DNA of 64,000 nucleotides from Verrucomicrobiota bacterium (GCA_037127585.1 JBAXYB010000003.1:3248-67247), one strand, 5' to 3'; counted from the stretch's first letter, positions 3,438-21,278 are shown. A program made the numbers and translations. The notes: generated by a model from the letters alone, not told the origin.

Positions 3438-5558
3438 TTACGAAGATTGGGCTTCGGCAATGACGGCGAGCGCTTCTTCGCCGAAGCGTTGGGCTTTGGC
3501 GGGGCCGATGCCGCGCACGTTTAACAGATCGGCGGGCGACTCCGGCAGGAGTCGCGCTAGCTCTTGCAGCGTCTTGTCCGGGAAGACGACGTACGCCGGT
3601 ATGCCCATTCGCGTGGAAGTTTCGCGTCGCCATTTTTTCAACGCTTCGAAGACGTTGTTGTTGTAGTCCGCTGGTGGAGTGGCGGCTGTCCCAGCCGCTT
3701 TCTTGCGAGCCGGTCGCGGCGCTGAGGCCGCTCCCACATTCGCTGCCGGCATTGTTAGGGGGATTGTTTTCTGTTTCAGCATCACTTCTCGGCCGAGGTC
3801 CGTGATCGAGAGGGTGGGGAAACGGTCGCCACCAACCGCAATGCAGCCGGCACGGATCAACGAGTCGAGCAACGACCACACGTAATCGGAGCCTTGCTCG
3901 GCCAAAAGTCCATAAGTCGAGAGTTGATCGAGACGGGCATCGACGACTTCTTTCGAGCGTGACCCGGTCAGTGTCTGGGCAATGCGGGCGCGGCCAAACC
4001 GGCCGTTGACGCGCGCGACGCAACTCAATGTCTTTTGAATGCTGACGGTTTCGGCGTCGGTCGGTAAGCGCGGGGCGGTCTTGCCGGTCTGGGTGACGCA
4101 GTTGTCGCAGACGGTGCAATGCGGACTGGCCTCAGTGTCGCCGAAGTAATCGAGGATGAAGTTGTGCCGGCAGCCGTGGTGATCGGCGTAGGCGATGATC
4201 TTGTGGAGCTTGCCGAGGTCGCGCTGGCGTTTGCTTTCGAGGCGCTCAAAATCAATCTCCAATTCGGAGAAGGCTTTGACTGGTTCGACGAGGCCGGTCG
4301 TGTAGGTCCGATTGCCGGATTCATAATCGCGGGCGATGAAGCCGGCCCGTTCGAGTTGAAACAAGGCGCTACCGACGGCCATGCCGTTCTTGACGCCCGG
4401 CAATTGTTCGGCGATGTCGTCAATCGACATGGTGATCGGGCCGCGTTGACAGAGGCGGGTTAAGGTCTGGTACAAGGCGGCGATGATTTCGCGAGTTGGG
4501 TTGGCGCCTTCGATGAAAAACTCCTGCGTGCGAACGTCGGCATAGTTAAACAGGATCTCGCAGCGGGCCGGCTCGCCATCGCGACCGGCGCGGCCGGCCT
4601 CCTGGTAATATGCCTCGACGCTGCCGGGGATGTCGAAGTGAATGACGAACCGCAAGTCCGACCGGTCGATGCCCATGCCGAAGGCATTGGTCGCGACCGC
4701 CACGTCGCAATCGCCGTTCATGAATTTGGTTTGGGCTTTGTTGCGTTGCTCGGGCGTCATCGCGCCGTGGTAGGCGATGCATTTAATGGGCAACTCGGCG
4801 GCGACTTTTTCGACGTTCTTGCGGGTGGCGCAATAGATGATGCCGGTCTTGTATTGGCGGACGATGTCGACGATGTGCTGAAATTTCGCGGCTTTGCCTT
4901 TGACGTTGGCGACGGCGAGCGTGAGGTTGTGCCGGGCAAAGCCGGTGACGAAAACTTGCGGTTCTTGCCGGCCAAACTTACCGAGGGCGAGCTGTTCGAT
5001 GATGTCGGCCCGGACTTCAGGCGTGGCGGTGGCGGTGAGGGCGATGACCTGCGGTTGTCCGAGTTCTTTGAGCGCCCATTTCAAGCGGATGTAGTCGGGC
5101 CGGAAGTCATGTCCCCATTGTGAGATGCAATGCGCCTCGTCCACCGCAAAGAGCGCGATGGACAACGGCGCTAGGGCGCGGATGAAGCGGTCGCTCTTGA
5201 AGCGTTCTGGCGCGATGTAGACGAGCCGGTAATCGCCGCGTTGCATGCCGGCGGTGCGGGCATCGATCTCGGATTGACTGAGCGAGGAGTTGATGAACGT
5301 GGCCGGGATCTTCTTATCGGTGAGGGCATCGACCTGATCTTTCATCAAGGCGATGAGCGGCGAGACGACGACGGTAATGCCTTCGAGGGCGAGGGCGGGG
5401 TACTGATAGCAGAGTGATTTGCCGCCGCCGGTCGGCATGATGACGAGCGTGTCCTGGCCATCGAGGATGGTCTCGATGACGTGCTCCTGGCCTTCGAGAA
5501 ATTCCCGAAAGCCGAAGTGTTGCTCAAGGAGTTGGTGGCGTTGCGTCGAGTCAAGCAT
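3438..5558 (-). CDS. recQ: ATP-dependent DNA helicase RecQ
   Basis: Canonical RecQ N-terminus (LEQHFGFREFLEGQEHVIETILDGQDTLVIMPTGGGKSLCYQ). DEAH box, RQC and C-terminal HRDC-like region are present. 706 aa. Confidence 0.9.
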   Translation of the reverse strand: MLDSTQRHQLLEQHFGFREFLEGQEHVIETILDGQDTLVIMPTGGGKSLCYQYPALALEGITVVVSPLIALMKDQVDALTDKKIPATFINSSLSQSEIDARTAGMQRGDYRLVYIAPERFKSDRFIRALAPLSIALFAVDEAHCISQWGHDFRPDYIRLKWALKELGQPQVIALTATATPEVRADIIEQLALGKFGRQEPQVFVTGFARHNLTLAVANVKGKAAKFQHIVDIVRQYKTGIIYCATRKNVEKVAAELPIKCIAYHGAMTPEQRNKAQTKFMNGDCDVAVATNAFGMGIDRSDLRFVIHFDIPGSVEAYYQEAGRAGRDGEPARCEILFNYADVRTQEFFIEGANPTREIIAALYQTLTRLCQRGPITMSIDDIAEQLPGVKNGMAVGSALFQLERAGFIARDYESGNRTYTTGLVEPVKAFSELEIDFERLESKRQRDLGKLHKIIAYADHHGCRHNFILDYFGDTEASPHCTVCDNCVTQTGKTAPRLPTDAETVSIQKTLSCVARVNGRFGRARIAQTLTGSRSKEVVDARLDQLSTYGLLAEQGSDYVWSLLDSLIRAGCIAVGGDRFPTLSITDLGREVMLKQKTIPLTMPAANVGAASAPRPARKKAAGTAATPPADYNNNVFEALKKWRRETSTRMGIPAYVVFPDKTLQELARLLPESPADLLNVRGIGPAKAQRFGEEALAVIAEAQSS

Positions 5559-11626: not shown

Positions 11627-13582
11627 GTGGCATCGCGTGACATGAAACTAGCCCGCTGCATTCTAGCGATTGTCGGGTGTGTTACCCTTGCAGATTTCGT
11701 TGCCGGTGCTGACTTGAATGACCCGGTGGACGTCAAACTCAAGAATGCCTATCAACGAATTCGGTTTGGCCAGCAGTACCCAGAAGAGGCGGTTCAGTTC
11801 ATCCAGTCGCAGTTACAGGATGTCGCTCGTCCGTTGACGGTATTACCCCAATTAGCCAAGGATAAGCGCGTCGAAGTTCGCGCGCTGGTGGCCCTGTTGT
11901 ATGGTGAATATGGCGACGCCGAAGCCAGTAAGATTCTCTGGCTCCTCACGCGCGATGAATTTGAATCAGTTCGCTTAACCGCAGCCGGAGCGATCGCGCG
12001 CTTGGGCCACTTGACAATAGTTACCGGTAATGTCGAGGGACTTCAGGACGAACGGCCGGCCGTCCGCCGGTTGACGGCCAGTATCTTGGCGGCTCTCGGT
12101 GATAAGTCGGCTGAAGAGGCACTCATTGATGCGCTCAAAGATGATAACGAGTTGGTTCGTACCGATATCGTGAAGGCCCTCAGCAAGGCCGCTTGCGGAA
12201 CGGACAAAGCTTTATCGTCCTTAATCGAAGCGTTGCATGATCCCAGCGTCAATGTCCGGGATCGAGCCGCTCAAGTGTTGGGCGGTTTTCAACAGATTGA
12301 CGTAGTCGATCCGCTCGTCAATGCGTTGAAGGACCCGGACTGGCATGTGCGTGCCGCGGCGGCGGATGCCCTCGGTGGCTGGGTCAAGATTCCGGTCGTT
12401 GTAGACGCACTGATCCGAGTCTTGGAGAACGACACTTTTGCCTTGGTCCGCGACCGGGCCGCGGATGCATTATCGCATCTTGGCGATGATGAGCGGGTGG
12501 TTCCCGCCTTGGTCAAAGCCCTCGGTGCCGAGCAACGCGATGTCCGCTTTCACGCCGCCCAAGCTCTAATCTCAGCCAAAGCCTCCAGCGCGTTGCCATT
12601 ACTCACGGCGGAATGGCGACGGACAACTCCCGCACCGGGCGGGCGTGATGCTTTTCCTGATCTTCGTGAGAAAATAATGGATATTTTTGGTCGTCTTGGT
12701 GGCGGTGATCAATTGCCAGTGATTATCGAAGGGACCAACGATTCAGAACCGCAGGTCCAATTGGCGGCCGTGAATGCGCTTCGTCGTCTCAAGGAACGCG
12801 GTGCCGGTAAACAGCTTAACGCCTGTTTAACCGATAAGAATCCCCACGTCCGCGCTGCCGCAGTCCGGGCCATTGGCGACCTCGGCGAGAAGGAAGCATC
12901 CATCAGGATATTGCCGCTGTTACGCGACGAAAGTAGTTATGTGAGGAGTGCGGCGGCCGAAGCGCTTGGCAAGCTCGGTGACCGGACTGCAATCATCCCG
13001 TTAATTCAGGTCCTCACCGGCGAAAAGCTGCCGGATGATCCCAAAGCCGGTTTGGTTATCGGTTCGGGAGATAAGTTTCTCGCTGACCTCGAGCTCACAA
13101 AAGTTCAGACCAGAACCCGGGCCATCGAAGCCCTCGGCGTCTTGCGTGCACCCGAAGCAGTTGAACCGATTATTAAAAACGGCTTAACAGCCGAAGATGC
13201 CGGGGTGCGGGCCGTTTCCGCCTATGCTCTTGGTCAGATCGGCGACGTGCGTGCGGTTGAGCCACTCAAAGATGTCGTCCGTAGTTATTACCTGACCGCG
13301 CCGACTGATCTTGATTACGTTATTAATCCCGGCGGTGGCGAAAAAGTTGCCGACGAAGCGCGGCGCATGAAAGAAAAGGAATCTCGCGTGCGCGCCTCCG
13401 TTACCTGGGCGCTTGGCCAGATCGGTGATGCCGCGGCCAAAGAAACCTTACTCAAGGCAATGAACGATCAGAACAGCTTGGTGCGCGACTCCGCGTTTGA
13501 AGCGCTTGCCAAAATTGCCGAAAAAGAAGAAGCCCAACAAATCGCGACGGACGCCAAAAAGAAATCCGAGAAAACACCCTAG
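11627..13582 (+). CDS. secreted HEAT-repeat (PBS-lyase-like) protein
   Basis: Signal-peptide-like N-terminus (MKLARCILAIVGCVTLADFVAGA). More than 12 tandem ~30-aa repeats of the form VR..A..ALG..GD..A...L...L.D. Confidence 0.75.
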   Translation: MASRDMKLARCILAIVGCVTLADFVAGADLNDPVDVKLKNAYQRIRFGQQYPEEAVQFIQSQLQDVARPLTVLPQLAKDKRVEVRALVALLYGEYGDAEASKILWLLTRDEFESVRLTAAGAIARLGHLTIVTGNVEGLQDERPAVRRLTASILAALGDKSAEEALIDALKDDNELVRTDIVKALSKAACGTDKALSSLIEALHDPSVNVRDRAAQVLGGFQQIDVVDPLVNALKDPDWHVRAAAADALGGWVKIPVVVDALIRVLENDTFALVRDRAADALSHLGDDERVVPALVKALGAEQRDVRFHAAQALISAKASSALPLLTAEWRRTTPAPGGRDAFPDLREKIMDIFGRLGGGDQLPVIIEGTNDSEPQVQLAAVNALRRLKERGAGKQLNACLTDKNPHVRAAAVRAIGDLGEKEASIRILPLLRDESSYVRSAAAEALGKLGDRTAIIPLIQVLTGEKLPDDPKAGLVIGSGDKFLADLELTKVQTRTRAIEALGVLRAPEAVEPIIKNGLTAEDAGVRAVSAYALGQIGDVRAVEPLKDVVRSYYLTAPTDLDYVINPGGGEKVADEARRMKEKESRVRASVTWALGQIGDAAAKETLLKAMNDQNSLVRDSAFEALAKIAEKEEAQQIATDAKKKSEKTP

Positions 13583-13647: not shown

Positions 13648-14655
13648 ATGGATTTAGTGAGACTTCACCTGCGAGATTTTATCTGGATTACGCTCGGGAC
13701 TCTGTTCTTACCGGCCTACACTCTGACAGGCTCCGCGGAAGATCCCGGCATACCCTGGCTCAATCACTTAAGCCTTAGCGCCCCGGAGCACGCCGGCTTG
13801 GTGGACAATGTGCTGCCACTTCTGCGCGGCGCACCGGCGGCCGTTGACCCAGATTTGGCCGTGGTCACCTTCCGAACTGGAGCCGCCGGTATCAAAGACG
13901 CCGTAATCCAACTCTACCAAGCGCCCACTTCCGGTGGCGCTCCAGTCCTCAACCCCCAAGGCGTCGTCCGCGACCGCGTCGGTGAATCGATGGCCGACTC
14001 GGCTGACAAACTACTTGGGCTCGTGCTCCAACAACCCGCTTGCTTCGGTGCCGCCACCGAGGTCCGGCGGCAACGCCGCGCTCTCAACTTGACCTTCAAC
14101 GGCGACCTCACTCTCTTGCGCGAACAAACCGTCGAACCACTCTACGTCGTCGGCGTCCTCGTTCATGCCGAACGGTACCTGCCGCGGAGTCTCAGTGCGC
14201 GCGTTCGAGCCGTTGTTCTCACTGCGCAACTCGACTTCGGTGAATGGCGCGGCCGGCTCAACTTCGTGACCGACAACCCAGCCGACGCTGAACAGGTCGG
14301 CAACATCGTGGCCGCGTGGCGTGATCTGGCCGGCTCGCTGGCGGCACACTTTGCCGGTCACTCCTCCGGCGACCGACTGCGTGCCGCGCTCCAAGCTTCC
14401 ACCGTTGTCGTCAACGAGAACCAAGTAACTGCCACCAGCGCGATCCCTGCGCCCGTCGTCGTTCGTGTCGCGAAAGAAGCCGCCGGTCACGGTAGCGGTT
14501 GCCCACCGGGCGGCGTTTGTGACCGGAACAAAATTGCCATTTGCCACAAATCCAGCACCACACTTTGTCTCCCACCAGCTGCGGTATCCGCTCACTTGGC
14601 GCATGGTGACACGTGTGGCCCCTGCGGTGTCCACGCCGCTACCGCTACCCCGTGA
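13648..14655 (+). CDS. hypothetical secreted protein with Cys-rich C-terminus
   Basis: N-terminal hydrophobic leader. C-terminal CPPGGVCDRNKIAICHKSSTTLCLPPAAVSAHLAHGDTCGPCG. Stop overlaps the start of the next HEAT gene (GTGATG). Confidence 0.45.
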   Translation: MDLVRLHLRDFIWITLGTLFLPAYTLTGSAEDPGIPWLNHLSLSAPEHAGLVDNVLPLLRGAPAAVDPDLAVVTFRTGAAGIKDAVIQLYQAPTSGGAPVLNPQGVVRDRVGESMADSADKLLGLVLQQPACFGAATEVRRQRRALNLTFNGDLTLLREQTVEPLYVVGVLVHAERYLPRSLSARVRAVVLTAQLDFGEWRGRLNFVTDNPADAEQVGNIVAAWRDLAGSLAAHFAGHSSGDRLRAALQASTVVVNENQVTATSAIPAPVVVRVAKEAAGHGSGCPPGGVCDRNKIAICHKSSTTLCLPPAAVSAHLAHGDTCGPCGVHAATATP

Positions 14656-15650
14656 TGCGGCTGACCATCATCGTCTGCTTCGCTCTCACCGGCCTACTAC
14701 TTGCCCAAGAACCCGAATCCCGACTCGACCGGCTCACTCGCTGGTTGCGTTCGCCACGAGCCAGCATCCGCGAAGAGGCTGTTACCGAGCTCGACACCGT
14801 TCCCATCAATAGCGCCTTGCCGTTGCTCCTCTCCGCGCTCAGCGATTCGAGCACCGTTGTCCGGGCCGCCGCCGCCAGTTCACTCGCGCGCACCGCCGAT
14901 AAACGTGCCGTACCGGCGTTGCGACCTTTGCTGAAAGATGACGACGAACATGTCCGGGCCGCCGCCGTCTGGGCACTCTGCCACACTGCCGGCAAAGCCA
15001 TCCTGCCGGACGTGCTTTCAATGTGCCTCGACGACGCCTCCGGTATCGTCCGCTTCCGAGCGGTTTGGGGTTTGGCCTTCATTGGCGATAAGTCCGCCTT
15101 ACCGGTCGCCGTCGCCGCACTCGGCGACTACAACACCGCCGTGCGCGAACGCTCCGCACTCCTCGCGCTCGACGTGCTGGCCGACGGGACGATTGGTGAT
15201 CGACTGGTCAAACAGGCGAAAAATATATTTCCACCAACGCGGCGAATTGTCATGTACCTCTTCACCCGGTATGGTGACGCAAAACAAGCCGGGCTGGCAC
15301 TCCAGGCCGGCCTGAAGGATGGCGAACCGCTCGTGCGCGCCGAAGCCGCACTCGCACTCGGCCGGCGCCACGCGAAGAACGTCGTGCCATTCTTGTTGCC
15401 GGCGCTCCAGGACGACGACGATCACGTGCGCGGTGCGGCGGCTCATGCACTCGGTTTGTTGGGAGAGCCTTCTAGCCGGGAAGCCTTACGTCCGTTGCTG
15501 CAAGACGAGGCCGCGTTCGTACGAGCCGTGGCGGCGGAATCCCTGCAACAATTGGGCGATCAAACCATCAAACCACCGGCCGGTTTCCGCGCGGCGGACC
15601 TGTTCACCTATCCAATTTACAGCCCCGAGAATGCGCAACGTTACCGCTGA
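14655..15650 (+). CDS. secreted HEAT-repeat protein
   Basis: Signal peptide MRLTIIVCFALTGLLLAQ followed by HEAT/PBS-lyase repeats (VRAAAASSLARTADKRAVPALRPLLKDDDEHVRAAAVWAL...). Confidence 0.75.
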   Translation: MRLTIIVCFALTGLLLAQEPESRLDRLTRWLRSPRASIREEAVTELDTVPINSALPLLLSALSDSSTVVRAAAASSLARTADKRAVPALRPLLKDDDEHVRAAAVWALCHTAGKAILPDVLSMCLDDASGIVRFRAVWGLAFIGDKSALPVAVAALGDYNTAVRERSALLALDVLADGTIGDRLVKQAKNIFPPTRRIVMYLFTRYGDAKQAGLALQAGLKDGEPLVRAEAALALGRRHAKNVVPFLLPALQDDDDHVRGAAAHALGLLGEPSSREALRPLLQDEAAFVRAVAAESLQQLGDQTIKPPAGFRAADLFTYPIYSPENAQRYR

Positions 15651-16420
15651 GGACCGGGGCAATGACCGTTCGGTGACTTCTTCACGAACTCGATAAACTC
15701 CAGCGCTTCCGCTGTCTTGAACGCGCCGTCCGTCTCCGCCAATGCCTGCGAGCCAGTCTTGCCGGCGAGATAGAATAGTTGAAATAGCCGTTTCAACTCC
15801 GACACCGCCTCGCGGGGAACTTTCGTCCGCCGCAATCCGACAAGATTCAAAGCGTGAATCTCATTCCGTTCCGCCGCGAGTGTGAACGGCGGCACGTCCA
15901 TCGACACGCGCGCATTCCCGGAGAACATCGCCAACCGGCCGATGTGCGTGAATTGATGGATGACCACCCCGCCCGAGATGAATGCCCGGTCGCCCACGTG
16001 GACGTGACCGGCCAACAGCGCGCAGTTGCAGATGATGACATTGTTGCCGATGACGCAATTGTGTCCGACGTGCGCCGTTGCCATGAGGTAACAATCGTTC
16101 CCGATCACCGTCGCGCTTTCCGGCTCCGTGCCGCGATGGACGTTGCAGTATTCCCGGAACACATTCCGGTCGCCAACGCGCAAGAAGCTTCGGATCGACC
16201 GATCAAACTTCAAATCCTGCGGCTCATGGCCGATGACCGCGCCCATGTGAATCTGGTTGTCGCGGCCAATCTCCGTGTGCCCGGTCAGATAAGCGTTGGC
16301 CCAGATCCGCGTCCCGGCTCCGACTTTTACGTGCTCCTCAATAATCGCGTGTGGCCCGACCTCCACCGAGGAATCGAGTTCGGCCTTCGGGCTGATGATA
16401 GCTGTTGGATGAATCGCCAT
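15641..16420 (-). CDS. lpxA: acyl-ACP--UDP-N-acetylglucosamine O-acyltransferase LpxA
   Basis: MAIHPTAIISPKAELDSSVEVGPHAIIEEHVKVGAGTRIWANAYLTGHTEIGRDNQIHMGAVIGHEPQDLKF hexapeptide LbH fold, diagnostic of LpxA. Start at the internal ATG 16420. Confidence 0.85.
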   Translation of the reverse strand: MAIHPTAIISPKAELDSSVEVGPHAIIEEHVKVGAGTRIWANAYLTGHTEIGRDNQIHMGAVIGHEPQDLKFDRSIRSFLRVGDRNVFREYCNVHRGTEPESATVIGNDCYLMATAHVGHNCVIGNNVIICNCALLAGHVHVGDRAFISGGVVIHQFTHIGRLAMFSGNARVSMDVPPFTLAAERNEIHALNLVGLRRTKVPREAVSELKRLFQLFYLAGKTGSQALAETDGAFKTAEALEFIEFVKKSPNGHCPGPQR

Positions 16421-16829
16421 GTCGAGTTGGGAGTATAGGTTATCCCGTGCCGGGTGGGAAGTCCCGGTGCCGGTCAAACCACCAGACCCACAGAAAAAGC
16501 GGCAAGCAAAACACGCCGGTAATGGTCACGGTATTTCCACTCGGCGGCGGCGGCCTGAAGATATTTCCGAGATAGTTCAACGAAAGCAATCCTACGAACG
16601 ACCAATATCCGATCGAGCCAATCTTGTCTTGTGCTTTTGAAGCGCGCGCGCAGAACCATACACTGCCCGGCCGGTATTTCGTCACCGCGTAATACATGGC
16701 CGCCAGCAACGTTGCCCAACCGGCATCGGCCACACCACATCCGGCCAAAGTGCCCGCCCGATTAACATACAGGTAACATTGCCAATTCCATCCTTAATGT
16801 AGGAACGACATTCTTGTCGCGACCGGAAA

Positions 16830-18305
16830 CTAATACTGCGGCACGTCCGTGTCGATCCGCTCAGCCCAGGCGTTGATGCCGCCGGCGACGTTCTTGACTT
16901 TCGTGTAGCCTTGGGTCTTGAGGAAGCTGACGGCGCGGGCGCTGCGACCGCCCATTTTGCAGTGGACGACGAGCTGTTTGTCCTTCGGCAGTTCCCGGAA
17001 ACGCTGCGGCAACTCCGGCAGGGGAAGTTTGACGGAGCCGTCGATGACGCTGATCTCGAATTCGTCGGGGTTGCGAACGTCGACGAGAACAAAATCTTCT
17101 TTGGCGTCGCGCATCTTCTTGAGGGTCTCGACACTGATGTCGTCGGGACCGAGGCCTTCTTCCTTTTTCTCGACGATGCTGTCGCCGGAGGTGCCGCCGT
17201 CTTCGCCGCGACCGATGCCGCAGAATTCGTTGTAGTCGATCAACGCGGTGATCGTCGGATTCTTTCCGCAGAGGGGGCAGTTGTGGTCTTTCGGGATTTT
17301 GTATTCCCGGAAAGTCATATCCATCGCGTCGAAGCGGAGCAACCGACCCATGAGCGGTTTGCCTTTGCCGATGATGAGTTTGATGGCTTCGTTGGCTTGG
17401 ATGTTGCCGATGATTCCGCAGATGACGCCGAGCACACCGCCTTCGGCGCAACTCGGGACGAGTCCGGGCGGCGGCGGTTCGGGGTACCAGCACCGGTAAC
17501 ATGGCCCGCCGAGGTGTGGCGCGAACACGCTGGCCATGCCTTCAAAGCGGAAGATCGAGCCGTAGACGTTCGGCTTCTTGAGCATCACGCAGGCGTCGTT
17601 GACGAGGTACCGGGTCGGGAAATTGTCGGTGCCGTCGACGACGAGATCGTAGTCCTTGATGAGGTCGAGCGCGTTCTCAGAGGTGATCTTGGTTTCGTGG
17701 GGGATGAAGTTCAGGTTCGGGTTGATCGCCTTCATCTTCTCGCCGGCGCTCTGGACTTTCGGTTTGCCGACGTCGCCGGTGAAATGGATGATCTGGCGCT
17801 GGAGATTGCTGAAATCCACGGTGTCGAATTCCACCATGCCGATGGTGCCGACGCCGGCCGCGGTGAGATAGAGGGCGAGGGGCGAACCGAGTCCGCCGCT
17901 GCCGATGAGCAATACCTTCGCGGCTTTGATGCGTTCCTGACCTTCGACGCCGACTTCCGGCAAGATGAGATGCCGGGAGTAACGCTTGATTTCTTCATTG
18001 GTCAGTTTCGCGCGGGTCTTGATGACCGGGTCGATGCCGCCGGCAATGGACGGGACAATCGCGATTTCATCGCCTTCCTTGACAGGAGTGTGGTCGCCCT
18101 GCAAGCGGATGTCCTCGTCGTTGACGTAGACGCGGACGAAGTTCCGCAGTTTGCCATCGCCGGTATAGAGGTGTTGCCGGAGTTGGGCATGCTGGGTGGT
18201 TAAATTGTTGAGAACTTCGCTGATGGTCGTGCCGGCGACTTCGACATTCGCTTGGTTGTCGGCGAAGCGGCGGAGCGCGGTCGGAATGGTAACGATGATT
18301 GGCAT
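16830..18305 (-). CDS. moeZ: fused sulfur-carrier protein (CysO/MoaD-like, ends in GG) + MoeZ/MoeB-type E1 adenylyltransferase + C-terminal rhodanese
   Basis: N-terminal ~90 aa MoaD/ThiS fold ending in ...EGDEIAIVPSIAGG. ThiF/MoeB nucleotide-binding motif VLLIGSGGLGSPLALYL and CxxC pairs. C-terminal rhodanese with active-site loop VVHCKMGGRSARA. Continuous ORF, no stop between domains. Confidence 0.8.
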   Translation of the reverse strand: MPIIVTIPTALRRFADNQANVEVAGTTISEVLNNLTTQHAQLRQHLYTGDGKLRNFVRVYVNDEDIRLQGDHTPVKEGDEIAIVPSIAGGIDPVIKTRAKLTNEEIKRYSRHLILPEVGVEGQERIKAAKVLLIGSGGLGSPLALYLTAAGVGTIGMVEFDTVDFSNLQRQIIHFTGDVGKPKVQSAGEKMKAINPNLNFIPHETKITSENALDLIKDYDLVVDGTDNFPTRYLVNDACVMLKKPNVYGSIFRFEGMASVFAPHLGGPCYRCWYPEPPPPGLVPSCAEGGVLGVICGIIGNIQANEAIKLIIGKGKPLMGRLLRFDAMDMTFREYKIPKDHNCPLCGKNPTITALIDYNEFCGIGRGEDGGTSGDSIVEKKEEGLGPDDISVETLKKMRDAKEDFVLVDVRNPDEFEISVIDGSVKLPLPELPQRFRELPKDKQLVVHCKMGGRSARAVSFLKTQGYTKVKNVAGGINAWAERIDTDVPQY

Positions 18306-18312
18306 GGTGTCT

Positions 18313-18717
18313 CTATAGCACTTCAATTGGCTCTTGGTCAAATTGGCTGCGGTCATCCCGTAGCAGCCACGAGTTTGTTTCGACAGCTTTCCCTTTGCAT
18401 ACCGAGACGATCAGGTAGGCGAGATTTGGAAACGCGTTATCGAGGTCGAACTGCGATGGTCGCGCCGGCACGTCGGGATGCGAGTGGTAGATGCCGAGGA
18501 CTTGGATGGCCCGTTTGTCCGCGGCGCGTTCGATATCTCGGTAGGCGAGGGGATCGATGAGGTACCGGTTGTGGGCGCTGTCGTCGCGCTGGTTGTCGGC
18601 CCGGGCAATTTCGCTCACGACGTTGCCGTGACCGAGGAGGACGCCGCATGCTTCGTTTGGGTAACCGGCTTCGAGGTGTTGGTGGATTTGTGTCAGCAGT
18701 GCCTGTTTGATCTTCAT
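18313..18717 (-). CDS. mec: Mov34/MPN/JAMM metalloprotease (Mec+ / CysO-cysteine peptidase-like)
   Basis: JAMM motif EACGVLLG ... HSHPDVPARPSQFD. 134 aa. Confidence 0.8.
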   Translation of the reverse strand: MKIKQALLTQIHQHLEAGYPNEACGVLLGHGNVVSEIARADNQRDDSAHNRYLIDPLAYRDIERAADKRAIQVLGIYHSHPDVPARPSQFDLDNAFPNLAYLIVSVCKGKAVETNSWLLRDDRSQFDQEPIEVL

Positions 18718-19646
18718 CGCGCTTCCCAGAATTTGTCGCTTTGATACCGCGCCCCGCCGTCCGGCGCAACCGCGACGATGACGCCTTGTTGAATCCGCCC
18801 GGCCAACGTCACCGCCGCGCAGACAGCGGCTCCCGCACTGATGCCGACGAACAAGCCTTCCGCGCTCGTCAGTTGTCGGGCCATCGCTTGGGCGTCTTCA
18901 GTGCTGACGCCGATGGTTTCGTCGGCGAATTTCGAGCTGAATATTTCCGGCACGTGCGAGGCCGTCTCCATATGTTTGAGACCTTCGAGACCGTGGAACG
19001 GTCCTTCGGGTTGCATCGCGATGATGCGGATGGCCGGATTGTGTTCGCGGAGCCGGCGGCCAGTGCCCATCAACGTTCCGCTCGTGCCAAGGCCGGCAAT
19101 GAAATGCGTTACTTCGCCGGCGGTTTGCGTGATGATTTCTGCGCCGGTCGTCTCGTAATGGGCTTGGGGGTTCTCGAGGTTTCCGTACTGGTTTGGGTAG
19201 AAGTACTGGCCGGTACTGGTTTCGAGGAGCTTCTGCGTTTCATAATACGCGCCGTCGCTGCCTTGCGCTGGATCGGTGAGAACTAATTCGGCTCCGTATG
19301 AAGCGAGCAACTTTTTCCGTTCGATGCTCGCGTTTGCCGGCATGAGCAGTTTGCACCGATAACCTTTGCGGGCGGCAATCATCGCGTACGCGATGCCGGT
19401 GTTGCCGCTGGTAGCGTCGACAATGGTTTTGTCTTTTGTCAGCGCACCGGAGATTTCGCCTTGGCGAATCATCCGGTACGCGGGCCGGTCTTTCACGGAG
19501 CCGCCCGGGTTGAACCATTCGGCTTTCAGGAAAACGCGGACATGCGGAAAAGTCGCGATGCGGAGCAGGGGAATGAGCGGCGTGTTGCCGATCTGGCGTA
19601 GTAACGCGTCGGAATCATCAGCCGGCAATGGAGAGGCGCTATTCAA
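18714..19646 (-). CDS. cysM: cysteine synthase (CysM/CysK family, PLP-dependent)
   Basis: PLP-lysine motif KAEWFNPGGSVKDRPAYRMI, plus SGNTGIAYAMIAA. The ORF-track N-terminal extension is rejected because it runs through the tRNA. Probable TTG start at 19646. Confidence 0.75.
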   Translation of the reverse strand: MNSASPLPADDSDALLRQIGNTPLIPLLRIATFPHVRVFLKAEWFNPGGSVKDRPAYRMIRQGEISGALTKDKTIVDATSGNTGIAYAMIAARKGYRCKLLMPANASIERKKLLASYGAELVLTDPAQGSDGAYYETQKLLETSTGQYFYPNQYGNLENPQAHYETTGAEIITQTAGEVTHFIAGLGTSGTLMGTGRRLREHNPAIRIIAMQPEGPFHGLEGLKHMETASHVPEIFSSKFADETIGVSTEDAQAMARQLTSAEGLFVGISAGAAVCAAVTLAGRIQQGVIVAVAPDGGARYQSDKFWEAR

Positions 19647-19668
19647 AAGAGTTGTCTTGGGCTTGGAT

Positions 19669-19744
19669 TGGTGGAGATGAGGGGATTCGAACCCCTGGCC
19701 TCCTCGTTGCGAACGAGGCGCTCTACCAACTGAGCTACATCCCC
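19669..19744 (-). tRNA. tRNA-Ala (anticodon CGC), CCA encoded
   Basis: Cloverleaf by eye: 7-bp acceptor stem with G3:U70 (Ala identity), D-arm GCTCAGTTGGTAGAGC, anticodon stem CCTCG/CGAGG with loop TTCGCAA, T-arm GGTTCGAATCC, 3' CCA. Confidence 0.85.
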
Positions 19745-19826
19745 GACCCAAGCGCAGAATCTGCGACGCGCGGAATTTACTGTTTGAGTTGATTGCCGTC
19801 AACGTTTCACTTATGGTCACACCACT

Positions 19827-21278
19827 TTGAATCCCGAGACACAAAATCCAATTACTTTCTCCCTGGAAGAACTCAACGTCACGCCGGATTGGCTGAAAGC
19901 CCCGGTCAAGAGCTATGACCGCCATCCGGGTGATACCGGCAAGCGGTCGTTTGGCGACGGGCCACGCGAGCGGTCGGGCCCACCGCGGGGCGATCGGAAC
20001 GGGCCGCCCCGGCGTGACCGGCCGCCGGGCGGTCGTCGCGATGATCGATCTGGCGGTGGTCGGCCAATGGGTCGCCCAGCGGCACCTCGGGCGGAAGCGC
20101 CCCCGCAACCGTTACCCAATGTGGACGTACTTTTCGTTCCGAACGAGGCGGTACTGGTGGCGTTGATTGACACGGTCAAACAATCACGACGCGCCTTTGC
20201 ACTATTCGATCTCGCGAAACTTGTGCTCAATAAACCCGAGCGCCACAACGTTAAGTTCGTCCCCAAAGACGGCGAGTTGTACTGTGCGTTGTTGGCCGGC
20301 GGTGTGTTTTTGTCGCGCGAAGAGGCCATCCGCCACACGCTCCGGCAGGGAGTGGACAAAGTTTTCTCCCGCCAAGAAAAACCAATTGATCCGCCGAAAG
20401 GTAATTTCCAATTCGTCAATCGCTGCGGTCTGACCGGCGAATGGCTGGGACCACCGAACTATCACGAATACCAAGCGCGGCTCGTGCGTCATCACCAACA
20501 ACGGTTCGCGCACATGCCTTTCGACCGATTTAAGTCGAGCGTTGAGACGGTTCACGATCCAGAGGCCGTCAAAGCCTGGATCGAGTCCAAGAGCAAAGTG
20601 ACCGAATACACCTGCCTGCTCGACGCCGAGCCGAAGGTGTTTGCCGACCGGACGGAGTTGGAGAAACATATCCGGCAAGAACACCTCGACAAGATTGTCT
20701 CCGCCGTCAATGTCGTCGAACTGACTGGAGTGATGTCGCGCCAAGTCGAAGATCGCCGGTTGCTCGACCTCGTGCGCGACGCGTGGGAAAGCGAACACCG
20801 CTTCCCGATTCGGACCGTGAACGAACTCCGGCCCCAGCTCGTCAAAGCCGGTCTCCATTTCTTCAAACACAAAAAAGGCGTGACCTACATTACGCCCATT
20901 AAGCTGAACCGGTTTGATGCCATCACGCACCTGACTGAGCACGTGCAAAAGATCATCACGTATCTGCGCGCCCATGACGACGCGACGCGCAAAAAACTCG
21001 CCGAGCATCTCGCGCCGGTTGACGAGACCATGCTGGCGTCAGACCTCCACTGGCTCATTCAAGACGGGTACGTTGTTGAATTCCACAACGGCCGCCTCTG
21101 GGCTTTGGATGACCGGCCCGCGAAGCCAGTCACTCCGCCGCCCGCCGCTCAGACAGCCGAAATTGCTGCTGAGGCGCCGGCTCCGTCAAATCCGGCCGAC
21201 CCGGTGCCAAATTTGGCTGCACCAGCAACCGAAACAGTTCAAGCAGCGGCCCCGGTAATCGACAATCCGCCAAATTAG
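19827..21278 (+). CDS. hypothetical protein with Arg/Gly/Pro-rich N-terminal low-complexity region
   Basis: 483-aa ORF (TTG start per the track). RGG/RGD-like N-terminal tract (GPPRGDRNGPPRRDRPPGGRRDDRSGGGRP). Conserved-looking globular region and Pro/Ala-rich tail. No motif I recognise. Confidence 0.5.
   Translation: MNPETQNPITFSLEELNVTPDWLKAPVKSYDRHPGDTGKRSFGDGPRERSGPPRGDRNGPPRRDRPPGGRRDDRSGGGRPMGRPAAPRAEAPPQPLPNVDVLFVPNEAVLVALIDTVKQSRRAFALFDLAKLVLNKPERHNVKFVPKDGELYCALLAGGVFLSREEAIRHTLRQGVDKVFSRQEKPIDPPKGNFQFVNRCGLTGEWLGPPNYHEYQARLVRHHQQRFAHMPFDRFKSSVETVHDPEAVKAWIESKSKVTEYTCLLDAEPKVFADRTELEKHIRQEHLDKIVSAVNVVELTGVMSRQVEDRRLLDLVRDAWESEHRFPIRTVNELRPQLVKAGLHFFKHKKGVTYITPIKLNRFDAITHLTEHVQKIITYLRAHDDATRKKLAEHLAPVDETMLASDLHWLIQDGYVVEFHNGRLWALDDRPAKPVTPPPAAQTAEIAAEAPAPSNPADPVPNLAAPATETVQAAAPVIDNPPN

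Follow-up and report, generated by a model that had tools for sequence, protein, structure and literature searches.

The locus analysed here lies at 16830-19744 of a 64,000-nucleotide (nt) stretch of DNA from a Verrucomicrobiota bacterium (GCA_037127585.1, JBAXYB010000003.1:3248-67247), which we refer to at its full length as the window. ARAGORN, the listing of open reading frames (ORFs), Pfam domain matches and direct reading of the sequence agree on the minus-strand gene order given in an earlier note on this DNA: a tRNA-Ala(CGC) gene with an encoded CCA end (19669-19744), a cysM-like gene with a TTG start (18714-19646) for a pyridoxal phosphate (PLP)-dependent cysteine synthase of 310 amino acids (aa), a gene for a 134-aa Mec+-like metalloprotease of the JAMM/MPN+ family (18313-18717), and an ORF of 491 aa (16830-18305) in which a CysO-like sulfur carrier, an E1 adenylation domain and a rhodanese domain are joined. 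We read this as a cysteine biosynthesis unit of the CysO/CysM/Mec+/MoeZ type in which the carrier is made as the N-terminal pro-domain of its own E1, and, from the sequence and from analogy with characterised systems, we put the probability of this reading at about three in four.

The genes are closely packed. The cysM-like gene does begin 22 nt past the tRNA 3' end, at TTG 19646, where the frame has its first start codon beyond the tRNA, and the N-terminus of its product from this start aligns with those of relatives' CysM. The earlier note also held that stop/start overlaps couple all three protein genes; this is right for the first pair, in which the cysM stop and the JAMM ATG share the letters ATGA at 18717-18714, and wrong for the second, in which the JAMM stop codon (TAG, 18315-18313) is followed by a 7-nt spacer before the fusion ATG at 18305. 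An upstream ATG at 18356, which would give an ORF of 508 aa, was considered and ruled out by the N-termini of 70 homologues: in the alignment all of them open with M[AP]I.V.IPTALR at the position of ATG 18305, and we therefore take that codon as the start. Pfam domain positions given below are numbered on the 508-aa ORF.

Pfam matches and direct reading bear out the description of this one ORF as a ubiquitin-fold carrier with the tail IVPSIAGG followed by a ThiF/MoeB-type E1 and a rhodanese. Aligning the N-terminal 90 aa to carrier profiles, a check that had been proposed earlier, places the domain firmly: ThiS is matched at 22-107 with the whole 76-position profile covered (E = 5e-15), and the closest solved relatives of the domain are two CysO proteins, 4n6e_B (E = 3e-16) and Mycobacterium tuberculosis CysO 3dwg_C (E = 3e-14), with sub-threshold NCBIfam matches to moaD_arch and SAMP1. 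Residues 1-90 counted from ATG 18305 (18036-18305) end in GDEIAIVPSIAGG and so form a ThiS/MoaD-fold carrier of about 90 aa with a terminal Gly-Gly, as in the CysO pathway. An AF2 model of the 491-aa fusion, built on the homologue alignment (mean pLDDT 83.5), gives residues 1-85 as a confident beta-grasp fold and tail residues 87-89 a pLDDT below 50, and the carrier tail is accordingly predicted to be flexible and exposed.

The remainder of the protein is an E1 of the MoeZ type, that is, a ThiF domain followed by a C-terminal rhodanese with a catalytic cysteine. ThiF is matched at 126-361 (E = 4e-80; 17274-17981 in the window) and Rhodanese at 409-499 (E = 5e-21; 16860-17132), the latter with the active-site motif HCKMGGRS. 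The fusion scores 496 bits against the NF005902 MoeZ model, below its cut-off of 647, and 456 bits against the PRK08762 MoeB model, above its cut-off of 449. Across 70 fused homologues the GxGxxG motif with its nucleotide-binding glycines, the two zinc-binding CxxC pairs (C269/C272 and C343/C346) and C286 in the PSCAEGG loop are invariant, as are C449 and R454 of the rhodanese, while H448 is nearly so. The top fold match of the AF2 model is Uba4 (6yub_A), an E1 with a rhodanese domain, and its E1 fold matches MoeB (1jw9_B) and ThiF with target-normalised TM-scores of 0.9.

Between carrier and E1 the DNA reads GGC GGC ATC GAC CCG, with neither a stop nor a start codon, so that Gly90 is joined by a peptide bond to Ile91 of the E1; the claim that the Gly-Gly carboxylate is buried in a peptide bond is thereby upheld. 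The same reading leaves no internal start at the junction from which a separate E1 could be translated; the E1 must therefore be made only as part of the fusion. What the window lacks, compared with the CysO pathway, is a free-standing carrier whose C-terminal carboxylate is free as translated, and no second ThiS-like gene was found anywhere in its 64 kb. The predicted cleavage site, which we place by comparison with relatives, comprises the codons of Gly89-Gly90 (18041-18036) and is followed by the 10-residue junction IDPVIKTRAK, the whole occupying 18006-18041 on the minus strand.

The other two proteins are those expected of a CysO pathway. The JAMM protein matches Prok-JAB with E = 5e-25 and carries the complete catalytic motif, E22 and HSHPDVPARPSQFD (H-x-H-x7-S-x2-D), in its translation; its closest solved relative is the MPN protein 2kcq (E = 3e-25), and the archaeal desampylase-type PfJAMM1 (5lda) is also matched. 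Linked to the carrier is a CysM-type PLP-dependent sulfhydrylase, which matches PALP with E = 3e-69 and, with similar scores, both Escherichia coli CysM (2v03) and M. tuberculosis CysM (3dwg_A). We dropped one candidate diagnostic for this enzyme, the residue for O-phosphoserine use (at the position of M. tuberculosis Arg220), as not discriminating.

A genome scan with one genome per species shows that the arrangement is widespread. Relatives that span the carrier/E1 junction are encoded in at least 423 genome stretches, from Verrucomicrobiia, Acidobacteriota, Bacteroidota, Elusimicrobia and Dormibacterota, and detailed locus counts were made on the best 80 of these. Among the 80, the Verrucomicrobiia members are 79-84% identical to the window fusion, which most likely puts the window itself in this class, and many loci are from Acidobacteriota, the dominant group among the relatives, including the cultured Pyrinomonas methylaliphatogenes K22 (L054). 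Of the 80 loci, 78 have a JAMM homologue, and 75 a CysM homologue, upstream in the same orientation. Whether orthologues are fused or split, a further check that had been suggested, can be answered directly: of the 80 loci, 71 read through the junction without a break and 9 are split. No second ThiS-like gene was seen in the operons of the fused loci, save for an opposite-strand copy in L083. A protein search returned dozens of clusters, 59-94% identical and with the architecture PF02597 + PF00899 + PF00581, which, where named, are called 'MoeB' or 'adenylyltransferase/sulfurtransferase'. The rarity implied for the fusion by the earlier note is consequently not borne out, as the architecture is common and was already catalogued in 2024.

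Conservation around the junction strongly supports the view, also put forward in that note, that the carrier must be cut after Gly-Gly. The tail motif [IV][IV]P[SA][IV]AGG is invariant throughout the fused proteins of the 71 continuous loci, and AGG never varies among 67 full-length fused proteins, although their carrier domains share on average only 61% pairwise identity. In the same 67 proteins the E1 and rhodanese part averages 68% and the linker 24%, the linker (from GG to the first conserved E1 motif, L..E..RY.RH) having 6-27 residues, many of them Ala, Pro, Glu or Thr. A scissile site with a disposable spacer behind it would be expected to look like this, with Gly-Gly invariant and the linker hypervariable. 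The split loci point the same way: their carriers end in GG plus 1-7 residues, which means that processing would be needed even where there is no fusion.

Precedents for such a cut come from other JAMM proteases. The Deinococcus enzyme DR0402 cuts a linear MoaD-MoaE protein and HvJAMM1 cuts linear SAMP1 fusions, and PfJAMM1 recognises its ubiquitin-like (Ubl) domain whatever comes after the C-terminal Gly (PMC8832034); the MoaD-MoaE and SAMP1-MoaE fusions are inactive until the JAMM has cut after the terminal Gly (PMC8832034, PMC4443979). The window fusion resembles Deinococcus MoaD-MoaE (DR2607) and Haloferax SAMP1-MoaE in having an N-terminal beta-grasp carrier, a conserved GG at the junction and a pathway enzyme as partner, and, as in those genomes, a JAMM is encoded, here by the adjoining gene at 18313-18717, whose competence is judged from its motif. 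It differs in that the partner is the upstream activator E1 and not the downstream user MoaE, and in that the protease gene, unlinked in Deinococcus, adjoins. A tailed carrier precursor and a JAMM also work together in the HcyS/HcyD system of Wolinella methionine synthesis. In the thioquinolobactin (QbsE/QbsD) and chuangxinmycin (CxnE/CxnF) pathways a JAMM adjoining the carrier strips post-GG residues for a MoeZ-type E1, QbsD trimming two residues off QbsE and CxnF being proposed to remove ten from CxnE (PMC5925218). Tails of this type are 1-10 residues long, and those of the split relatives, with their 1-7 residues, are of just this kind; the 'tail' in the window is a 401-residue enzyme. From the sequence patterns and these analogies, the adjoining JAMM is most likely the enzyme that cuts the carrier from the E1 after Gly-Gly.

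The chemistry of the MoeB/ThiF family requires a free carboxylate for adenylation, and the carrier could therefore function only once the Gly90-Ile91 bond had been hydrolysed. The pathway that we propose begins with translation of the 491-aa CysO-MoeZ precursor, probably from a transcript starting at a tRNA-Ala promoter, after which the JAMM would hydrolyse Gly90-Ile91 to release MoeZ (401 residues) and a carrier of 90 residues whose Gly-Gly carboxylate is free. The ThiF domain would adenylate the released carrier and the rhodanese persulfide would then yield the thiocarboxylate, which the PLP-dependent CysM would add to an activated serine, perhaps O-phosphoserine or O-acetylserine, to form a carrier-cysteine adduct; hydrolysis of the adduct by the same JAMM would free cysteine and regenerate the carrier. 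By analogy with Mec+, which in mycobacteria hydrolyses the CysO-cysteine adduct (PMC3227635), the one protease probably does both jobs. M. tuberculosis has the same four protein types, CysO (Rv1335), CysM (Rv1336), Mec+ (Rv1334) and MoeZR (Rv3206c), and the chemistry of that pathway is established, with CysM using O-phosphoserine together with the carrier thiocarboxylate, and with MoeZR both activating CysO and taking part in the synthesis of molybdenum cofactor (PMC3227635). There the carrier is a separate protein of 93 aa and moeZR is unlinked, whereas in the window the carrier forms the N-terminal part of the E1 polypeptide and a single gene cluster contains all parts, so that the window unit would need a processing step before its first turnover.

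Several points weigh against this reading. All the mechanistic steps rest on homology and comparative patterns. The presence of a JAMM gene next door does not discriminate, as mycobacterial Mec+, which hydrolyses the CysO-Cys adduct, also accompanies an unfused CysO, and adjacency alone therefore cannot prove that the fusion is cleaved. The CysM-like protein falls below the curated cut-offs of both relevant NCBIfam models, by 4 bits for cysKM (340.4 bits, E = 1e-102) and by 61 bits for cysM (332.9 bits, E = 2e-99). Two fused loci have neither a JAMM nor a cysM gene within the available flanking DNA and so are exceptions to the operon rule: L011 (Vicinamibacterales) and L078 (Bryobacteraceae, 1823-2287), the latter with almost no linker (AGG, a single T, then LSNEEMLRYSRQ) and no JAMM or cysM in 1.8 kb upstream. 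Finally, evolution could have run either way, as fusion by loss of a stop codon or as fission or loss.

A more specific version of the proposal makes the fusion a control point and not a neutral accident, with MoeZ, as the general sulfur-carrier E1 of the cell and probably also needed for molybdenum cofactor and other thiolations, inactive, or occupied by its tethered carrier, until the JAMM cuts; we consider this doubtful. If it were true, all protein-thiocarboxylate chemistry would be gated by one protease, with E1 and carrier supplied strictly 1:1 as a pre-assembled complex.

It is unlikely that the carrier is released for a purpose other than cysteine synthesis, as a MoaD-MoeB pair for molybdenum cofactor or for another thio-metabolite such as homocysteine or methionine. 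The case for this draws on annotation: a 2024 catalogue places this architecture with molybdopterin biosynthesis, under the label 'moaD fusion with moeBR', with clusters 356.2/356.3 in Archaea that are more than 55% identical to acidobacterial proteins (mSystems 2024, PMC11237513), the database names are all 'MoeB', and the moaD_arch and SAMP1 matches and the shortfall of the CysM-like protein against its equivalog cut-offs fit it too, as does the service of mycobacterial MoeZR to both MoaD and CysO (PMC3227635). What tells against it is the local evidence, in that among solved structures the carrier is closest to CysO proteins, 75 of the 80 loci have a linked gene of the CysM/CysK family, the best families of the PLP enzyme are cysteine synthases (E = 1e-99 to 1e-102), and no moaE, moaA or moaC was seen beside the fusion in the window.

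Also quite unlikely, in our judgement, is that the Ubl domain is never released and stays on the E1 permanently, to serve in docking, regulation or autoinhibition, with the true carrier free and encoded elsewhere in the genome, of which only 64 kb are visible. There is a precedent in the ThiF proteins with a fused N-terminal Ubl domain and a separate ThiS, for which a non-carrier role was inferred (Iyer et al. 2006, PMC1779556). Those proteins, which occur in Campylobacter and in Gram-positives of low GC content, have a Ubl distinct from ThiS, lie in thiamine operons with a ThiS gene of their own and lack both a rhodanese and a JAMM (PMC1779556). In the window, the fused domain is instead a true ThiS/CysO member over its full length, with the invariant AGG; it is the only carrier in its operon, as in the fused operons of relatives (save for the opposite-strand copy in L083), and its neighbours are cysM and JAMM genes, not thiamine genes. 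A linker as free of constraint as a discarded segment, and split relatives in which the orthologous carrier domain is a separate gene, further disfavour a permanent tether.

Release by something other than the adjoining JAMM, through autocatalysis or a housekeeping protease, with the JAMM only recycling the adduct as Mec+ does, seems very unlikely. A parallel would be the MoaX protein of M. tuberculosis, a MoaD-MoaE fusion that is cleaved in vivo and for which no assigned protease is known. The two fused loci that have no nearby JAMM would suit such a route, as would the documented role of Mec+ in adduct hydrolysis (PMC3227635). Set against this, linear Ubl fusions are cleaved by JAMMs behind the terminal Gly with little regard to the residues beyond it (PMC8832034), a JAMM adjoins in 78 of the 80 loci, and the model suggests a flexible, exposed carrier tail. 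We give practically no credence to the fusion being an artefact, in which a sequencing or assembly error deleted a stop between two genes: although 9 related loci do have an in-frame stop between carrier and E1, the identical continuous junction recurs across several phyla in assemblies made independently, among them that of a cultured isolate, and in the closest relative (94% identity), and sequencing error is excluded because the junction is continuous in these relatives.

Comparison of fused, split and unfused loci indicates how a CysO-MoeZ precursor of the kind proposed here might arise and be lost. The 9 split loci comprise 4 from Bacteroidota, 4 from Acidobacteriota (2 labelled Candidatus Acidiferrales) and 1 from Dormibacterota. 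In all 9 the E1 ATG is in the frame of the carrier, so that split and fused forms differ by one in-frame stop. In the Bacteroidota the E1 start follows the stop directly, as TAA then ATG; the 4 Acidobacteriota and the Dormibacterota locus have a spacer of about 30-50 nt with a purine-rich, ribosome-binding-site-like stretch before the E1 ATG, and the linker of the fused proteins looks like a translated former intergenic spacer. If the JAMM already trims anything after Gly-Gly, loss of the in-frame stop would cost nothing. A ratio of fused to free carriers could not be derived from a representative library searched with the 90-aa query, since the matches are mainly fragments, frameshifts and chimeras; an exact GG end occurs in 9 of the 134 closest motif-bearing carrier-domain representatives, a figure that is indicative only, the library being full of fragments.

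Stand-alone MoeZ proteins (389-420 aa) are 70-87% identical to the window protein and begin, as MEPIV... or MNPIV..., exactly at the position of Ile91 (MEPIVTNR.. aligned with IDPVIKTR.. after GG). In a neighbour-joining tree of the E1-rhodanese part, unfused MoeZ nest at least 3 times inside the fused clade. None of the unfused loci L001, L084, L085 and L086 has a cysM, JAMM or carrier gene nearby; L001, L084 and L086 keep lpxA downstream and tRNA-Ala(cgc) upstream, as in the window, and L085 has neither neighbour, its only tRNA being a tRNA-Pro 4.4 kb away, with no lpxA called. Read from these layouts, the cysM-JAMM-carrier block would have been gained or lost repeatedly between the tRNA and moeZ, with the E1 always kept, and loss is the more parsimonious of the two. 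Since close relatives keep the E1 after losing cysM, JAMM and carrier, it is very likely that MoaD, ThiS or other carriers are also served by the released E1, in line with what has been shown for mycobacterial MoeZR (PMC3227635).

The tRNA-Ala(cgc) gene is the only tRNA that ARAGORN finds in the window. A consensus scan places a promoter-like site, TTGACG-17-TAAATT (19774-19802, minus strand), about 30 nt upstream of it; the evidence is weak, as the region contains 2 such sites and shuffles lead one to expect 1.1. Between the tRNA and the end of the fusion gene the minus strand showed no terminator-like site. The same tRNA stands upstream of the moeZ unit in the Verrucomicrobiia relatives L005-L010, L084, L086 and L087, and is absent from 5 sampled loci of other phyla (L012, L016 and L054 of Acidobacteriota, L037 of Bacteroidetes and L058 of Elusimicrobia) as well as from L011, which has no cysM or JAMM nearby, and from the split locus L082. 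The 22-nt spacing is specific to the lineage: in the closest relative (L087, whose fusion is 94% identical) tRNA and cysM are 94 nt apart with a hairpin between them, and in other Verrucomicrobiia a gene for an SseA-like sulfurtransferase intervenes. In the unfused L086, moeZ itself starts 12 nt after the tRNA, which makes co-transcription of the tRNA with the first ORF a recurrent, plausible arrangement in the clade. Co-transcription of cysM with tRNA-Ala, as proposed in the earlier note, is thus plausible from the layout.

No Shine-Dalgarno-like sequence is seen at either of the starts that adjoin the tRNA, in L086 (5912-6003, 12 nt) or in the window (19646-19669, 22 nt after the CCA), which suggests a tRNA-mRNA co-transcript whose mRNA would be nearly leaderless once the tRNA 3' end has been processed. 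We also considered whether the cysM-JAMM-carrier block might be a mobile element inserted at the tRNA, and rejected this: the window contains no second copy of the tRNA 3' end and therefore no att-like signature. The unfused L001 (4423-4833) does have a repeat of this kind: 23 nt of the tRNA 3' end (TTCAAATCCCCTCATCTCCACCA) occur both at 4477-4499 and at 4811-4833, with a 93-aa GIY-YIG-like ORF (4506-4787) between the tRNA-Ala(cgc) and the second copy; from the sequence, this looks like a small element integrated in the tRNA 3' end just upstream of moeZ. The SseA-like sulfurtransferase, which has two rhodanese domains and lies between tRNA-Ala and cysM in L005 (1717-2676) and in L006-L008, could by its sequence be a sulfur donor for the pathway; its gene is absent at the window locus and in L087. 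In L005 (4266-5828) and in L004, an opposite-strand gene for a 520-aa, repeat-rich and probably beta-helical protein lies between the JAMM and fusion genes, and the three genes therefore need not share one transcript everywhere.

Parts of this arrangement are on record. An operon type (4c) consisting of ThiS/MoaD, E1-rhodanese, JAB and cysteine synthase was described, including an acidobacterium (Iyer et al. 2006, PMC1779556), and Ubl-E1 fusions common to Thaumarchaeota and bacteria were noted by Makarova and Koonin (2010). The window ORF and its fused homologues share with the moaD-moeBR clusters a carrier, MoeB and rhodanese in one polypeptide, a comparison made with the catalogue description and not with the archaeal sequences; the catalogue gives no cysM or JAMM context and no processing model (PMC11237513). 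We found no paper that ties the fusion to this context or tests its processing, in a search that did not reach Burroughs 2009 (on the E1-like superfamily) or Burns 2005. The locus is, then, a further member of a common, already catalogued architecture within a known pathway, and to it the analysis adds the comparative case for cleavage, the relation of split to fused forms, which are one in-frame stop codon apart, and the repeated loss of the carrier block with the E1 retained.

If the precursor reading holds, bacteria would routinely make a ubiquitin-fold carrier as a fusion precursor, as eukaryotes do with ubiquitin, the partner here being the carrier's own E1. The ubiquitin-ribosomal protein fusions and polyubiquitin of eukaryotes are likewise head-to-tail precursors that a dedicated protease cuts after Gly-Gly (PMC11354881), though with other partners, other protease families and conjugation in place of the sulfur transfer of the window unit. 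The comparison also offers a picture of how fusions turn over, with fused and split forms one in-frame stop apart, a linker that resembles the old spacer, and a protease whose trimming past Gly-Gly would make fusion harmless; the fusion would be a clean test substrate for the specificity of bacterial JAMMs. For annotation, it would mean that hundreds of 'MoeB' entries from Acidobacteriota, Verrucomicrobiota and Bacteroidota should be read as CysO-MoeZ precursors belonging to a cysteine pathway, which a search for a separate carrier gene would miss.

Some CysO-like proteins seen in the course of this work have unusual forms. Five of them (P0151, P0157, P0180, P0183 and P0200) carry Cys-rich tails after GG, namely CCCCCCL, CCVMTCGT, ACACYCPCRMNA, CCPPAACCCR and CCALI, which may be real, as metal-binding or lipidated pro-peptides, or may be frameshift products. 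Three others of about 170-190 aa (P0123, P0124 and P0127) consist of two tandem CysO-like domains, the first ending in AGG directly before the second beta-grasp, and resemble the poly-ubiquitin arrangement.

The module is flanked on one side by a gene for an LpxA-type acyltransferase (15641-16477, minus strand) and genes for two HEAT-repeat proteins (11627-13582 and 14613-15650, plus strand), and the order moeZ-lpxA-HEAT is kept in L086 and L088, with or without the carrier block. On the other side, divergent from the tRNA, a plus-strand gene (19827-21278) encodes a conserved protein of 483 aa with no Pfam match and an N-terminal region rich in Arg, Gly and Pro, an orthologue of which occupies the same position in L001 (2790-4319) and L087 (891-2375).

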